The notes under the pieces were generated by a model. The model saw only the letters and a list, made by a program, of their open reading frames with translations, searched no databases and had not been told where the DNA came from. Positions 21,256 through 62,217 of a DNA stretch of 64,000 nt are shown in pieces; the first letter of the stretch is position 1, and the number at the start of each line of letters is the position of its first letter. The DNA comes from a virus (lineage: Duplodnaviria; Caudoviricetes). The DNA is taken from the IMG/VR virus record IMGVR_UViG_3300005670_000019; one strand, given 5' to 3'. The translations under genes and the position numbers were made by a program.

Positions 21256-21638
21256 TGGTGGACACGACGGGGAATTGAACCCCGTGTCCAAAAAAACCTT
21301 AGAACTTCTTTTACGTTGCCTATGTAGTTTCCGCTTTTGCTGAGGAACTTTCGTTCGACTGCCAGGAAGCTCAGCGCATCTACCAACTGTCCTGTTTTCT
21401 TTACCCAAATCTCGTTCTGTAGTTAATGGTAAAGTGGTTCACTACAAAACCAGTCTTCTAAAATGATGCAACAAGAACTACGAAGACTTCTCATGCTTGT
21501 CACACCTCTTACTCAAGCGGCAAGAGGAAGGTATGCGTTTTCTGCATTTGTTTTTGAACACAGTATTTGATTGGTTATGTTCGCCCAATACAACGTGGAT
21601 ACATTCCTTGTGTTTCTCTGTCGAAACCTGTCATGCCC
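21256..21638 (-). ncRNA. ssrA: tmRNA, tag (A)AENAYLPLAA
   Basis: 5' GGGCATG pairs with 3' CGTGTCC-A-CCA with a G3:U wobble; T-arm GGGGTTCAATTCCCC; tag frame GCA GAA AAC GCA TAC CTT CCT CTT GCC GCT TGA at 21545-21513. Confidence 0.95.
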
Positions 21639-27850: not shown

Positions 27851-28028
27851 GTAATGGGGTCATCTTTTTTTCTTTTTCGCTAACCCCTTGATTATATTGG
27901 CATTTTGGGTTTCTAGCGTTACTTCCATGAAGGTGTGCCTAAAGGGCACACAATATTGCCGGGTCGTATTCAGTTTTCAGGAGACTTTGGGTTCCGGGCT
28001 TTCCTTCGCCCCGTTCCCTTATGCTCTC

Positions 28029-39440: not shown

Positions 39441-39469
39441 ACTATAATGCGGTCGGAAGTTATTTTCAA
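39441..39469 (-). promoter_or_regulatory. Dedicated promoter of tRNA-Cys
   Basis: TTGAAA-N17-TATAGT, 8 nt before the tRNA. Confidence 0.75.
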
Positions 39470-49603: not shown

Positions 49604-49980
49604 ATGGTGACGCCTCTCAACAGTATTGTTGGTTTGCGTCGGTGGATGATTTCCACGGTACATCATCATAATGACAGACTTCGCTGTCATTATCAAGCAA
49701 AGTTTTATGAAAACGAAACTTTGCGAAGTTAGTATTGCTCTTCCGCTACTCTGGCGAAGGAACCTTTTTATAAAAGCATTTTGTAGAAAGTTTTACTCTG
49801 TTGTCGAGTGCCACCTCGACAGCAATTAGTCTCTCATTCTACATGCTTCTTTTGTATGGGTTCGGCAAAGAAATTAATGCTTACGCGCTATAAACATTAG
49901 TCCCTTGCATATCTTTCCGGAGAAAGGACTCCTATCCAATTCTCAATCAAGATACCGAAAGAACTGGTTCAAAAAACAAC

Positions 49981-50050
49981 TACAAACAAAGGGAATCGAA
50001 CCCTCTTCTTCCGGATTGGAGTCCGGATGCACACCATTTGCATAGTTTGC
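49981..50050 (-). pseudogene. tRNA pseudogene (Gly- or Trp-like) with a 6 nt anticodon loop
   Basis: CCGGA-CTCCAA-TCCGG; intact T-arm; weak acceptor; no CCA. Confidence 0.6.
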
Positions 50051-50057
50051 AGCTATT

Positions 50058-52790: not shown

Positions 52791-52874
52791 CTGAGGAGGA
52801 AGGAATCGAACCTACATAGCCTCTTTCAAGACACAGGTTAACAGCCTGTCGCATTACCTTTATGCTACTCCCCA
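52791..52874 (-). tRNA. tRNA-Asn(GUU) with a long variable arm
   Basis: ACAGG-CT-GTT-AA-CCTGT followed by GTCTT-GAAA-GAGGC; no CCA. Confidence 0.8.
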
Positions 52875-52912
52875 ATATTCAGTTTTCAAACTTCACAAGG
52901 AAGCTTAGAATT

Positions 52913-54984: not shown

Positions 54985-55503
54985 TTCAAACTTATTGGAG
55001 TTTTACTCCTTGAAATGAGGACAAACTCTGTTTAGCACTTAAACACACTAATTCTAGCTATCGTTGCATACGTCATCGCACTATTGCAGCTCGCGATGCT
55101 TCTCTGATAAATCACGCGAGTTATGTTTGTCCTCATTTCGAGGAGATAGATGCATTCTGCTACTGCCAGCAAAGGCATTCCACAGAGGATCTATTCTCCA
55201 GAACTTTCTCGTATTTAGTTTTCAACGCCCGAAGGGCAGTATAACCTGCTCACGCCGGGGCGGCTATTGCAGGTTGAAATTTGGTGCCCCGTTTCGCCGG
55301 GGCGACGCGCTGTTTCTTGTTTGGGGTAAGTCGACCTTGCCCATTCAAGCGGCGGCTCCATGTAGCCGGAGATATGTGTGAGTTAGGCTTACGTTTCCGT
55401 CAGCCGCTCACTCGATATCCCTTCATTCTTTTACTCTAGCAGGTCCGAAGACCATTTTCAACCAATGTCGGTCGATTTTTTTGAGTGCTTTTTAGCACGA
55501 AAT

Positions 55504-55722: not shown

Positions 55723-55751
55723 AATATAACAGACCCCGAGAGGATTTTCAA
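55723..55751 (-). promoter_or_regulatory. Internal sigma70-type promoter in the RNA array
   Basis: TTGAAA-N17-TATATT with extended TG. Confidence 0.75.
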
Positions 55752-57578: not shown

Positions 57579-57803
57579 TTATTTGGTACCCGGTGAGGAT
57601 TTCGAAACCCCGACCTTCACCTTGTAAGGGTGTTGCTCTGCCTCTGAGCTAACCGGGCATGACTTGACAATTTCTTTGATTGTTGGTAAACAACCTCCGC
57701 AAACTGTTCCTGCTTCTGTTTGTTTGCACACTTCGACAACCTTACAAGGTAAGGTTTCTTTGATTTGGGCACAGTTGATTGCTTTGCATAAACACACAAT
57801 CAT
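57579..57803 (-). CDS. Bfd-like [2Fe-2S] ferredoxin whose frame reads through tRNA-Val
   Basis: MIVCLC...AGTVCGGC, the BFD-like CxC...CxxC pattern. Confidence 0.65.
   Translation of the reverse strand: MIVCLCKAINCAQIKETLPCKVVEVCKQTEAGTVCGGCLPTIKEIVKSCPVSSEAEQHPYKVKVGVSKSSPGTK
57584..57658 (-). tRNA. tRNA-Val(UAC)
   Basis: CACC-CT-TAC-AA-GGTG; CCA encoded. Confidence 0.9.
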
Positions 57804-57891: not shown

Positions 57892-58128
57892 ATACTTTAC
57901 CACCTAACAACTGCAATCTGTCTCTCTTCAAATTGAAGAGTTGAAGTTTCAATTCCACAGCTCCTTAGATAGGACTTTGCTTGTTCGACTTGCCCAGGTT
58001 CAATCAAAAGCTTGAGCCCATGTGCATTTCTTCCAATACCATGAAACCATGATTGGTTTTGACAGAAATTGACAATTGCTTGTTTGGTCATTTATTTCTC
58101 TAACTAACGACTCTATATGAGTCAAAAA

Positions 58129-58202: not shown

Positions 58203-58262
58203 AATCTCTTACCTTCACAGTATCACAGTGAAACGGAAGTTTCAAGCGATGCTTGAAGATTT

Positions 58263-58339
58263 TGGTGAACGAGGTGAGAGTTGAACCCACATCCCATAGC
58301 TTCTGAGGCTATGCGCTCTTCCTGTTGGCGTACTCGTCC
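58263..58339 (-). tRNA. tRNA with a CAG (Leu) anticodon on a short-variable-loop body
   Basis: ATAGC-CT-CAG-AA-GCTAT; 5 nt variable loop; CCA encoded. Confidence 0.75.
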
Positions 58340-58407
58340 ATCAACAATCTAACCACATTCAAAATTGCATCTAAAGATGGGTCATTTGACTTTGATCAGA
58401 TTTATAG

Positions 58408-58484
58408 TTGGCATTCCCGAACGGACTCGAACCGATACCTTCACCTTGAGAGGGTGACCACCTAACCATTAGTAAGACGGGAAC
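58408..58484 (-). tRNA. tRNA-Glu(CUC), first tRNA of the array
   Basis: TCACC-CT-CTC-AA-GGTGA; CCA encoded. Confidence 0.9.
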
Positions 58485-58495
58485 AAAAAGAAACG

Positions 58496-58511
58496 TATTC
58501 AGTTGTCAAAG
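58496..58511 (-). promoter_or_regulatory. rRNA-leader boxA-like element
   Basis: CTTTGACAACTGAATA; near copy TTTGAAAACTGAATA at 52876-52890. Confidence 0.5.
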
Positions 58512-58512
58512 T

Positions 58513-58552
58513 AGAAACGAAAAACCCTCCGAGCTTTTGCTGGAGGGTTGCT
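58513..58552 (-). terminator. Conditional intrinsic terminator (attenuator)
   Basis: CCCTCC-AGC-AAAA-GCT-C-GGAGGG followed by TTTTTCGTTTCT; its 5' arm also pairs with GAGGGTTGCT at 58587-58578. Confidence 0.8.
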
Positions 58553-58585
58553 ACACTTCTATACACACACTAATATAAGCAACCC

Positions 58586-58675
58586 TCAAATGTCATCAAT
58601 AAACGCAGGCAAGTATCCCTCGACGAGGCTTACTTCGCGTTTTGTTGACCAATCATTTTGATGTATGTTACTCAT
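58586..58675 (-). CDS. Putative attenuator leader peptide MSNIHQNDWSTKREVSLVEGYLPAFIDDI
   Basis: 29 codons, 19 amino acids, 27 distinct codons; the stop codon overlaps the antiterminator strand. Confidence 0.7.
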   Translation of the reverse strand: MSNIHQNDWSTKREVSLVEGYLPAFIDDI

Positions 58676-58693
58676 ACTAATTCTTGTACTTAC

Positions 58694-58700
58694 TAAATAG
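58694..58700 (-). promoter_or_regulatory. Candidate phage-specific promoter motif CTATTTA
   Basis: The same heptamer precedes the portal (648-654), the ORF at 13784, the ORF at 18495 and the terminase operon (62633-62639). Confidence 0.5.
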
Positions 58701-58760
58701 TAAGTTGTATAGTTTTTCCCACCAGCGGGAGTCGTTTTTTCTATCTACAACCACTATACC

Positions 58761-60098
58761 CTATTGGCTCCAGAATTTCAAGGGTTGTAGCTGTGGTTGT
58801 AGTTGGGTCATGTGAGCTTCCTCACTTGCAGTCACAGGTCCCAATTTTGAAACGAAATTCTTTATCCAGCGTTGATAGATTGATGACTTATCATCATTCT
58901 TCTTCAATTCTTGACGTCTTGCTTGAACAATTGAAACAAAATTCTCAATTGAATAACGCAGTATTGTTGGGTCTGATGAAATCATGCAAAGACCTGCTAA
59001 TGCTTGGTCGTCGTCTCCCGTAGCGATTGCATAATCAATCAAAAAATAAAGAAGAATGTGTTCAAGTCTAGAGTTTAATTGAGAACCATCATAGGAGTTT
59101 TTTGAATGTTCAAACTCTTTCTTAATTTTATCTGTTGTCATATTCTTGACAACAAATTCATAAATTTGATTTTTATCCTTTTCCGGCAAGGTCATGTGGC
59201 GGTCGACATGCTTGGAAAACCTTTTCGCAAATGCTTGCGGATGATTTCCGGAAATTCTCGTAAAGACCATTTCCCTTTTTTCAATGACTTCGGAGAAATC
59301 CTTATGATAAAGGATTTTATCCTTGGTGAAACCAATCATTGAAGATTTCAAATCAAACATTGATAAAATTTCTTCAAACGAAGCTTCGTTATGTACCCCG
59401 GTGATAAACTGCAAAATAACAGGCTTTTGTTTGAATGTGTTGGTCATTATCTGAATTGTAATTGCGGTGCTTGTAACCCTTACAACTTCAAGACCAAACC
59501 TTATTGTTCCGTCATGACTCCCCAAGCTCGGTGGAATGTCCTTTCCACTTACACTAACAGGAAAGATTGGAGCATTCCAATACTTGATTTCCAATTGATT
59601 TAATTGATGAATCAAACTGTACAAGGTTTTCATTCCCTTGATAATCTCTTCATCTTCATAAAAGAAGAGATCATAATCAGTATCTTCTATAGAAGTTTTG
59701 CTTGAAATCCTGCTCAAACTTCCACCTGCCCACATGGCATTTGAGTTTTGCAAAACTTGCATCAAAATAGGGAAAATATTCAAACTGTTTGGAATACGTT
59801 CTTTTCCAAAGAGAAGAATTTTCAATTGTTCATGACTCATCAACCTAAAGTTGAATGGATTTGGATTTTCAAATCCATACATTGGGTGAACAAAAAATTT
59901 CGTTGAAATGAAATGTCGTAGTCGCGAAATGGCAACATCCTCTGTTTCAGAGGAATGATCCAGAGATAAAATCTCGTTTTCATTTACAGGATTGATTTCA
60001 ATGAAATCCTTTTCCAGGGAAAGTTGGTTTTTAGCCTCTTCTAGAAGTTTGAAGTTTTTCTTTGCTTCTAGAAGATGTAGATTGTCAACGTTACTCAT
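58761..60098 (-). CDS. Putative Pol-beta-superfamily nucleotidyltransferase
   Basis: WAGGS...DYDLFF and LSMFDL motifs. Confidence 0.55.
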   Translation of the reverse strand: MSNVDNLHLLEAKKNFKLLEEAKNQLSLEKDFIEINPVNENEILSLDHSSETEDVAISRLRHFISTKFFVHPMYGFENPNPFNFRLMSHEQLKILLFGKERIPNSLNIFPILMQVLQNSNAMWAGGSLSRISSKTSIEDTDYDLFFYEDEEIIKGMKTLYSLIHQLNQLEIKYWNAPIFPVSVSGKDIPPSLGSHDGTIRFGLEVVRVTSTAITIQIMTNTFKQKPVILQFITGVHNEASFEEILSMFDLKSSMIGFTKDKILYHKDFSEVIEKREMVFTRISGNHPQAFAKRFSKHVDRHMTLPEKDKNQIYEFVVKNMTTDKIKKEFEHSKNSYDGSQLNSRLEHILLYFLIDYAIATGDDDQALAGLCMISSDPTILRYSIENFVSIVQARRQELKKNDDKSSIYQRWIKNFVSKLGPVTASEEAHMTQLQPQLQPLKFWSQ

Positions 60099-60555: not shown

Positions 60556-62217
60556 TCAGTCATCTAACCATCCCCATGGATTTTGCCAATGAGGTGTTCG
60601 GGTAGAATTCATAACTCTACTATCTGTTGAAGACCCACCAAAATGCCCAGCATTTGAAGGATTTGTTGAATGCGCAGCTCCCCATCCTGATGTTGACTTT
60701 TGGGTTTCAAAAGTTTTGACTGTTGTTTGGTTTACGGACATGGCAGCAATCATAGCTCTAGCAAGTTCTGCGCTGCTATCAAAGTTTTGGTCACCTTGTG
60801 GGTCGAAAAACAAGAGAGTAATTGCAAGGGACATGACAAGGTCGTCGTTGTAACCTTTCATAGCTTGCGCCTTATTGTTATGCCAAATGAATGTTTTCAA
60901 CTCTTCAACAAAGCGTCCGGAATATATCTTTAGCGTTTTCGTTCTGAGTGCTTGTTCAAGTTTTACAAGTCCTTCATTTCTGGATTTTACACTCATCATC
61001 AAACCTGGGGTGTATGGTTCGACATCAATATCACTAAGCCATTTGGTTCCCATCAAAACTTCTTTTGAGAACTTCTCATAAAATACTTTTGGGTACTTCA
61101 ATCTTTTCAGTTCAAGATTTGTTGCGATTCCACCACCTTGTTGTTCAGCAATGATGACAGCGTTATTGTATTTTCCACCAATGTCAGCAAGAAGTCTTCC
61201 GAAATCATCAGCAGGAAGTTGTCCCTTGAATTCACAAACAACTTCACTTTCATCCATATCAATAACATAAAAAGAAGAGAAGTCCTCACCATCACCACGA
61301 GCGACGTCTGCTCCAATGATGTATTTGTGATTTGGAACTTGATATCTCCAGATCCACACGTTTTGATTTGGACCATATGTTGCGAGTGGTGGTCGAATAC
61401 TTTTCTCTAACCAAGAAACTTGTTCTTCATCAACAAATCCATTTCCAGAACCCTCAAACTTACAAAGAAGCTCTGAGTTGATACCTCTTTGAGAACCGAT
61501 AGCTCTTGATTGTTCTTCGAACCATTTCTCATTATGTTCTGGATGAACAAACCAAGGAAGTTCAATGGGATAGAAATCATTCGTCTTGTCTTGAGCTCCG
61601 ACCCAAATCTTATGGAAACGCGTTCCTACACCAGAAGGTGATGAAATCAAAATAACATCTCCTCCGGTAGATAACGTTGGTTGAAGACCGATCCAAAGGT
61701 CTTCAAAATCTGCAATCCAGCCCGCCTCATCAATAATCAAAAGAGATACGGCTTCGCCTCGACCTGCATCAGGAGAAGTTGGAATAGCGTGAATCTTTGA
61801 ACCATTGTCGAACTCAAGTGATTTGTTTGTTTCACTCGTGATGTTTGGAACAACCAACCATGATGGAAGAGACTTGAACATTCCCTTTACTTTTCTAACG
61901 AAAAGCTGTGCTGTTGAAAGTTTGGTAGCGATAACAAGAACGTTCTTTTCTCGTTGAAAAATAGCCATCCAAAGTGAGTAAGCAGCAGCAAGAGTAGAAA
62001 GTCCAAGCTGACGACTTTTGTTTGTGATAACGTGATTGTTGTTCAAGAAAGCTTGCAAACAATCGATCTGATATGGAAACAATTCAAAAGGAATTGAGCC
62101 TTTTGTTGGGTGAGAAATTTTTACGTATTTCTCAATGAAATATACAGGATCAGAACCACATCGAATGATTTCATTCAAATGTTCTTTTCTTGTTTGATTG
62201 ATTTTCGGTCGCTTCAC
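60556..62217 (-). CDS. Terminase large subunit (T4 gp17-like)
   Basis: KSRQLGLST Walker A, LLIIDEA Walker B, ISSP, IGADVARG and DDLVMS. Confidence 0.95.
   Translation of the reverse strand: MKRPKINQTRKEHLNEIIRCGSDPVYFIEKYVKISHPTKGSIPFELFPYQIDCLQAFLNNNHVITNKSRQLGLSTLAAAYSLWMAIFQREKNVLVIATKLSTAQLFVRKVKGMFKSLPSWLVVPNITSETNKSLEFDNGSKIHAIPTSPDAGRGEAVSLLIIDEAGWIADFEDLWIGLQPTLSTGGDVILISSPSGVGTRFHKIWVGAQDKTNDFYPIELPWFVHPEHNEKWFEEQSRAIGSQRGINSELLCKFEGSGNGFVDEEQVSWLEKSIRPPLATYGPNQNVWIWRYQVPNHKYIIGADVARGDGEDFSSFYVIDMDESEVVCEFKGQLPADDFGRLLADIGGKYNNAVIIAEQQGGGIATNLELKRLKYPKVFYEKFSKEVLMGTKWLSDIDVEPYTPGLMMSVKSRNEGLVKLEQALRTKTLKIYSGRFVEELKTFIWHNNKAQAMKGYNDDLVMSLAITLLFFDPQGDQNFDSSAELARAMIAAMSVNQTTVKTFETQKSTSGWGAAHSTNPSNAGHFGGSSTDSRVMNSTRTPHWQNPWGWLDD

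Follow-up and report, generated by a model that had tools for sequence, protein, structure and literature searches.

A probable leader-peptide type transcription attenuator at the head of a phage tRNA array

Recent work credits phage tRNA arrays with compensating for the cleavage of host tRNAs and for codon mismatch (PMC10264068, PMC11464382, PMC11555353). The stretch of DNA analysed here (the window, 64,000 nt) comes from an uncultured phage with a genome of roughly 300 kb and carries such an array on its minus strand. The first of the 33 tRNA genes, tRNA-Glu(CUC) (58484–58409, ARAGORN; 44 bits with Rfam), is separated from the end of an upstream 445-residue gene (58761) by a gap of 276 nt, and this gap holds a short ORF. 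The question raised by this locus is whether the gap contains a switch that governs the entry of RNA polymerase into the tRNA genes and, if so, what that switch responds to. A sequence-only reading of the window had proposed an attenuator whose codon-diverse leader peptide senses a shortage of almost any charged tRNA. Our analysis of the window and its relatives led us to consider a ribosome-read transcription attenuator of the leader-peptide type as the probable explanation. Conservation and compensatory change give strong support to the attenuator architecture, and from the sequences we infer both the translation of the frame and the direction of the response.

Predicted architecture of the leader

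All elements of the leader lie on the minus strand, and their coordinates are given in the direction of transcription. A consensus scan identified a sigma-70-like promoter at 58781–58753 (TTGAAA, a 17-nt spacer and TATAGT), from which the leader RNA would start near 58746. At least 13 TTGAAA-N16/17-TATAGT-like sites, this promoter among them, make up a family confined to the minus strand, with −35 hexamers at positions 58781, 55751, 55461, 54101, 48323, 46724, 39469, 38425, 34263, 28057, 27850, 11629 and 7844. Several of these sites have an ATG 6 to 7 nt past the −10 hexamer, which suggests that many genes of the phage are leaderless. A Bacteroidetes-type −7 promoter element was also considered and rejected, as the spacing is wrong and the phage genes use a GGAG Shine-Dalgarno sequence. 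The haplotype of contig L142 has two bases missing inside the −10 hexamer of the leader promoter (window positions 58758–58757), representing either a promoter-down variant or an assembly error.

The 5′ untranslated part (58730–58688) contains two small hairpins in the minimum-energy fold, at 58730–58717 and 58705–58688. A small hairpin just 5′ of the ATG was also present in the folds of the two diverged relatives introduced below (L145 and L154), with a different sequence. The leader ORF spans 58675–58586 and comprises 29 sense codons followed by TGA (58588–58586); it is present upstream of the first tRNA as the sequence-only reading had described it. The start-codon segment (region 1, 58681–58667) forms a 15-bp helix with 58583–58569, a start-to-post-stop pairing that recurs in the folds of L145 and L154, and the interior of the ORF folds into the long hairpin (P1) that the sequence-only reading had noticed. 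Region 2 (58587–58578), which provides the antiterminator with its 5′ arm, starts with the second base of the stop codon. It is, exactly as claimed, the reverse complement of region 3 (58552–58543), the 3′ arm, from which it is separated by a 25-nt loop (58577–58553). Seven nucleotides of region 3 are shared with the 5′ arm of an intrinsic terminator (58549–58520), which consists of a hairpin at 58549–58523 (about −16.7 kcal/mol) and a T run at 58524–58520, and the U-tailed terminator shortly before tRNA-Glu was thereby recovered as well.

A scan of both strands of the 64-kb window for a terminator preceded by a complement of its 5′ arm and by an ORF stopping there returned this one site only. 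The same architecture was likewise unique in the loci of both relatives, with about 160 kb scanned in all. An Rfam scan of 58300–58900 matched the tRNA alone and returned no family for the leader; by the E-value of that scan, the leader does not match the T-box covariance model either.

These elements suggest the following course of events. In the absence of a ribosome, region 1 is proposed to pair with the segment behind the stop codon and thus to sequester part of region 2, so that the terminator at 58549–58523 would form. A ribosome that has reached the stop codon would itself cover region 2, and the terminator would form again. If ribosomes were delayed within the frame, region 2 would be free at the moment region 3 emerges, and the two would pair as the antiterminator. 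RNA polymerase would then pass a conserved sequence block into tRNA-Glu(CUC), tRNA-Leu(CAG) and the genes beyond. The phage would thus probably make the switch-controlled tRNAs mainly during slow decoding.

To evaluate this scheme, each leader was folded as far as the terminator end, with 28 nt masked to represent the ribosome, which gives equilibrium estimates from which co-transcriptional kinetics could differ. With no ribosome, the terminator was predicted in the leader of the window and in those of both relatives. It was also predicted in all three with a ribosome at the end of the frame, in agreement with the earlier claim that a ribosome at the stop codon leads to termination. The companion claim, that a stall at almost any codon frees the antiterminator, held in part. 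In the most diverged lineage (lineage C), an A-site codon anywhere from 1 to 24 gave the antiterminator, and codons 25–30 gave the terminator. In the lineage of the window (lineage A), the antiterminator was predicted for codons 1–7 only, a range that a queue of ribosomes from the start would extend to about codon 20; the last codons and the stop gave the terminator. In lineage B, the terminator was predicted at the last codons and the stop and almost always elsewhere, contrary to the claim. Since the two hairpins of lineage B are nearly equal in energy, its outcome would depend on the order of folding.

Conservation of the switch in diverged lineages

Relatives were found through the upstream gene and the terminase in a large protein collection, and they fall into three lineages. 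Lineage A is that of the window itself, with 27 contigs that span the whole 391-nt leader region and a few partial ones. Lineage B has a terminase 80% identical to that of the window; its leader is found on L144–L150, of which L145 was used here, and one of its contigs is 301.6 kb long. Lineage C, with a terminase 68% identical, is represented by L154. The gene order is common to all three: terminase, deaminase, upstream gene, leader, tRNA-Glu(CUC) and tRNA-Leu(CAG). Beyond these lineages, the leader had no DNA relative among GenBank phages, where only the tRNA matched, and no GTDB genome matched a pattern built on the tRNA junction. In IMG/VR and JGI metagenomes, the full-length identity of terminase relatives did not exceed about 51%, and those relatives that were checked had no tRNAs nearby or contig-wide. 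One exact-pattern match for both arms, on L113, proved to be an unrelated hairpin.

The lineage A leaders are 97 to 100% identical and form six haplotypes, in none of which the ORF is interrupted by a frameshift or a stop. Their variants comprise two synonymous and two non-synonymous changes with no compensatory pair, too few for a test of selection. The leaders of A, B and C can be aligned mainly at the start of the ORF, the switch arms, the block before the tRNA and the tRNA itself, and they share one layout: a promoter (at L145:13512–13540 and L154:5138–5166 in the relatives, the same position as in the window) and an ATG frame that stops in region 2 come first, the 25-nt loop and the terminator come next, and the conserved block and the tRNAs follow. 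The frames are 29 (A), 31 (B) and 29 (C) codons long and end in TGA, TGA and TAA, each inside the 5′ arm of the antiterminator. The loop between the antiterminator arms is 25 nt in all three lineages, with unrelated sequences, and the terminator stands 35 nt before tRNA-Glu throughout. The sequence-only reading had asked whether the frame and the 10-bp pairing are kept in relatives. Both are, and a short ORF with covarying antiterminator and terminator in front of tRNAs was thus found in two diverged lineages.

Both alternative helices are maintained. In the alignment, 100% of cells were paired in the antiterminator, with 4 of the 8 counted pairs changed on both sides in L154. In the terminator, 100% of cells were likewise paired, and 3 of the 7 counted pairs had changed on both sides in L154. 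When the partners were slid by 1 to 3 columns, pairing fell to 29–71%. Two bases of region 3 (alignment columns 45 and 46) changed together with their partners in both helices; since region 3 has changed with both of its partners, both pairings appear to be in use. All of these compensatory changes rest on a single contrast, A and B against C, among three independent lineages only. The overlap between the antiterminator and terminator arms is 5 to 7 nt across the lineages, and the predicted free energies are similar, at −19.8 (A), −16.1 (B) and −18.2 (C) kcal/mol for the antiterminator and −16.7 (A), −16.6 (B) and −16.4 (C) kcal/mol for the terminator.

Translation and composition of the leader frame

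The helices of the leader might answer not a ribosome but a phage or host protein, the speed of the polymerase or another RNA, in which case the leader would be a translation-independent RNA switch or processing leader and its frame a by-product of the hairpin. We regard this explanation as unlikely, and several observations speak for it. As the earlier reading had cautioned, the leader ORF has no clear Shine-Dalgarno sequence; none was found in any of the three lineages, although many genes of the phage have GGAG 8 to 12 nt 5′ of the start. The P1 helix encloses the start codon, which is paired in the final fold of all three leaders. All three are strongly structured, with z-scores against shuffled sequences of −5.3 in lineage A and −3.9 and −3.3 in the relatives, and a null that keeps each lineage's own pairing leaves the frame open about one time in five (P = 0.18 to 0.26). 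There is also a precedent in the leader of tet(M), where the predicted leader peptide is apparently untranslated: a similar sequence-based model of the orf12 leader was later unsupported when translation of that leader was tested (bioRxiv 10.1101/2021.03.24.436905). Such models can fail at the step of translation, and this outcome calls for caution with the phage leader too.

Against a switch indifferent to translation, both relatives keep an ATG frame that ends in region 2. For a frame both to be open and to terminate at the only stop triplet of region 2, the estimated probability was about 0.09 for L145 and about 0.07 for L154, giving an estimated joint chance of about 0.006. Furthermore, P1 has little conserved sequence that could serve as a site for a ligand or protein, and the Rfam scan described above, T-box included, offers no known family for such a switch. 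The conservation of the frame argues for translation of the leader. The peptides of A, B and C are alignable only up to residue 11, a drift that fits the act of translation mattering rather than its product. What speaks against translation, besides the points above, is that a ribosome would need to load within about 100 nt of transcription, before the strand that pairs with the start appears.

What the ribosome would read is unusual in its breadth. In the window, codons 1–26 of the leader ORF are all different and cover 19 of the 20 amino acids, Cys being absent; the first repeats are codons 27 and 29. Among 46,386 stop-free 26-codon windows in the six frames of the 64-kb window, 15 had all codons different and 12 had at least 19 amino-acid types. 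Only one had both properties, and this was the leader ORF, which is also the only one of 909 ATG-started frames to combine them. In simulations with the codon usage of the phage, the chance computation that the earlier reading had called for, both properties appeared together in none of 200,000 runs. These rarity figures are post hoc, as the codon statistic was picked after the sequence had been seen, and the real test lies in the relatives.

In that test, two details of the original proposal did not last. Conservation does not extend to the run of 26 different codons: five of the six lineage A haplotypes repeat GTA (codons 4 and 15), lineage B uses TCG three times, and lineage C uses TCA and TTT twice each. 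The missing Cys, which had been read as meaningful, is unremarkable, with an estimated probability of chance absence of about 0.4 to 0.7 per lineage. The breadth of amino acids did recur, with 19 types among 29 codons in A, 18 among 31 in B and 19 among 29 in C. Under the structure-preserving null, which yields about 15 types on average, the corresponding P values were about 0.006 (A), 0.05 (B) and 0.005 (C). They were about 0.003 (A), 0.045 (B) and 0.003 (C) under codon-usage, uniform and own-composition nulls, and 0.010 (A), 0.048 (B) and 0.002 (C) when the shared first 11 residues were held fixed. With A as the source of the hypothesis and B and C as its tests, the two P values multiply to about 2.5e-4, a recurrence that also speaks against the frame as a by-product of the hairpin, and the combined P is about 0.001 to 0.002. 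As this combined value comes from two replicates that share ancestry, we regard it as suggestive, not conclusive.

Selection on the leader for amino-acid breadth is plausible, somewhat short of an even chance in our estimation. Enrichment in the codons of one sensed amino acid is the opposite of what was seen, as the leaders use 18 to 19 types with no tandem repeats. Since so many types are used, a leader of this kind would report the general speed of decoding and not the supply of one amino acid. The stronger proposal, that selection maintains the frame, with nearly all amino acids present once or twice, to probe decoding as a whole, so that the loss of almost any charged tRNA through starvation or host anticodon nucleases would call up the replacement tRNAs of the phage, is one that we hold tentatively and would sooner doubt than assert. 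If it were true, the leader would be the sensing arm of the tRNA-based counter-defence discussed for phage arrays (PMC10264068, PMC11464382, PMC11555353). A match between the leader codons and the phage's own anticodons was also considered and rejected: 13 of 28 codons were exact matches against 30 distinct anticodons in a hand count, with no enrichment.

Entry into the tRNA array and comparison with known systems

Behind the switch, tRNA-Glu(CUC) is followed by tRNA-Leu(CAG) (58339–58263, minus strand, ARAGORN), and the same two genes come first and second in L145 and L154. No member of the promoter family lies between the terminator and tRNA-Glu in the window, which leaves read-through as the obvious way into the first tRNAs. 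The next clear family promoters downstream of the leader are those with −35 hexamers at 55751 and 54101. Their ends at 55723 and 54073 agree with the internal promoters into the array that the sequence-only reading had listed, and the promoter it had assigned to the distant tRNA-Cys gene (39432–39359) was located at 39469–39441. A weak candidate promoter near 58248–58220 (TTGAAA, 17 nt and a TAnnnT hexamer, read by eye) might limit the reach of the switch to the first two tRNAs.

These promoters bear on a further explanation, in which the leader is a separate small gene for a stable RNA of roughly 225 nt or an mRNA for a 29-residue protein. It would end in a compound terminator, and the tRNAs would be served by leak-through or by other promoters. 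A promoter and a strong terminator do bracket a well-folded RNA, internal promoters do exist further down the array, and an attenuator leader may also work in trans, as reported for rnTrpL (PMC6614838). Region 3, however, has changed in step with each of its two partner strands and thereby implies the use of both pairings, and in all lineages only 35 nt, without a family promoter, lie between the terminator and tRNA-Glu. A functional protein is itself unlikely because the peptide is not conserved beyond residue 11. We therefore consider a separate small gene improbable. That an ordinary terminator of the upstream operon merely lies beside an accidental short frame is very improbable: the codon statistic was chosen after the sequence had been seen, and one such frame in 64 kb is not impossible, but the layout is conserved with compensatory changes in leaders that are otherwise almost unalignable, and the architecture occurs nowhere else in the roughly 160 kb scanned.

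The ribosome-read attenuator thus remains the preferred reading, and its wiring, as far as the sequences tell, is of the trp/his type. Like the attenuators of trpL, hisL and pheL and of the multivalent ilvGMEDA and thr leaders, the phage leader has a promoter, a short frame whose stop codon sits at the edge of region 2, the competing pairings 1:2, 2:3 and 3:4 and, immediately ahead of the genes it would control, an intrinsic terminator; its geometry is close to that of the trp leader. In contrast to these enterobacterial attenuators, it has no run of a single codon but 18 to 19 amino-acid types, it lacks a Shine-Dalgarno sequence, its region 1 is the start-codon segment and not the regulatory codons, and it fronts tRNA genes instead of biosynthetic enzymes. 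The tRNA genes as target, the phage setting and the composition of the leader would set it apart, also from the slow-translation attenuators considered below. Our literature search found no published description of such control of phage tRNA genes.

In phage T4, the tRNA cluster includes small stable RNAs, the species 1 and 2 RNAs, which are co-processed. The present leader is akin to them in being a structured non-tRNA RNA within a phage tRNA gene region, and the species 1 and 2 RNAs are not known to have a terminator/antiterminator switch or a conserved reading frame.

Because it has no repeated regulatory codon, the phage leader is closer to general slow-translation attenuators. In the mef/mel leader (PMC4335068) and in the proposal for the orf12 leader of tet(M), a slowed ribosome on a short frame selects between terminator and antiterminator, as it would in the phage leader, and the tet(M) model put forward for Tn916 (Su et al. 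1992), according to a later study, invoked the general availability of aminoacyl-tRNA (bioRxiv 10.1101/2021.03.24.436905). Those leaders control resistance genes in bacteria and transposons, whereas the phage leader stands before tRNA genes. If the attenuator reading is right, the phage would gauge how well decoding proceeds and provide tRNAs as needed, and a control logic familiar from bacterial textbooks would apply to tRNA genes and in a virus. At about 300 nt, the element is self-contained and comes with natural compensatory variants, so it is directly testable with reporters.

Between the terminator and tRNA-Glu lies the conserved block (58511–58491, minus strand), which is near-invariant in the three lineages. 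Its 15-nt core (58509–58495) recurs at 55225–55211 and 52889–52875 and, with one mismatch, at 27980–27966, all on the minus strand, against a chance expectation of 0.11 copies; the copy at 52889–52875 abuts tRNA-Asn at 52874. As a promoter the block was rejected by eye, as it has no usable −10 at the right spacing. Its core resembles the boxA-like consensus of Bacillus subtilis rrn operons (PMC13753749), and the block may be a boxA-like element. With rrn-type boxA/Nus antitermination it shares a CUUUGA(A/C)AA-like core placed on an untranslated tRNA transcript, but the likeness is one of motif only, and the phage motif extends about 10 nt beyond boxA. If the block were a site for loading Nus factors, its place would be sensible, just past the decision point on a long untranslated transcript. 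The 19-mer of the block had 38 scattered matches in bacterial genomes, and none of the 16 loci checked adjoins rRNA genes, so these matches lend the boxA reading no support and point to no host. The 19-nt motif was also present, again away from rRNA genes, in unrelated IMG/VR viral contigs (L155–L160) and in GTDB bacterial MAGs (L162–L199), including four copies in one Hydrogenobacter MAG, several in Pyrinomonadaceae, and two in one Bacillota MAG that lie directly 5′ of TPP riboswitches.

Several neighbours of the leader were also inspected. The upstream gene (58761–60098, minus strand, 445 residues) carries a precomputed label of PF26128 (Gad2, an anti-Gabija family). Our own Pfam scan gave no match for it at an E-value of 0.01, and neither this protein nor its L154 version had homologues beyond its own 90% cluster. 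Two ORFs on the minus strand lie behind the switch among the tRNA genes: one of 64 residues with no family (57897–58091) and one of 74 residues with a BFD-like [2Fe-2S] domain (57579–57803; E = 6e-6). Further down the array are a tRNA-like gene with a two-base anticodon according to ARAGORN (49980–50051, minus strand) and the tmRNA gene (21256–21638, minus strand), whose tag ends in LPLAA. The terminase of the window (60556–62217) is without an intein, and in some very close relatives (L115, L116, L117, L119, L142 and L143) the large subunit is about 1000 residues long and contains an intein with a LAGLIDADG endonuclease.
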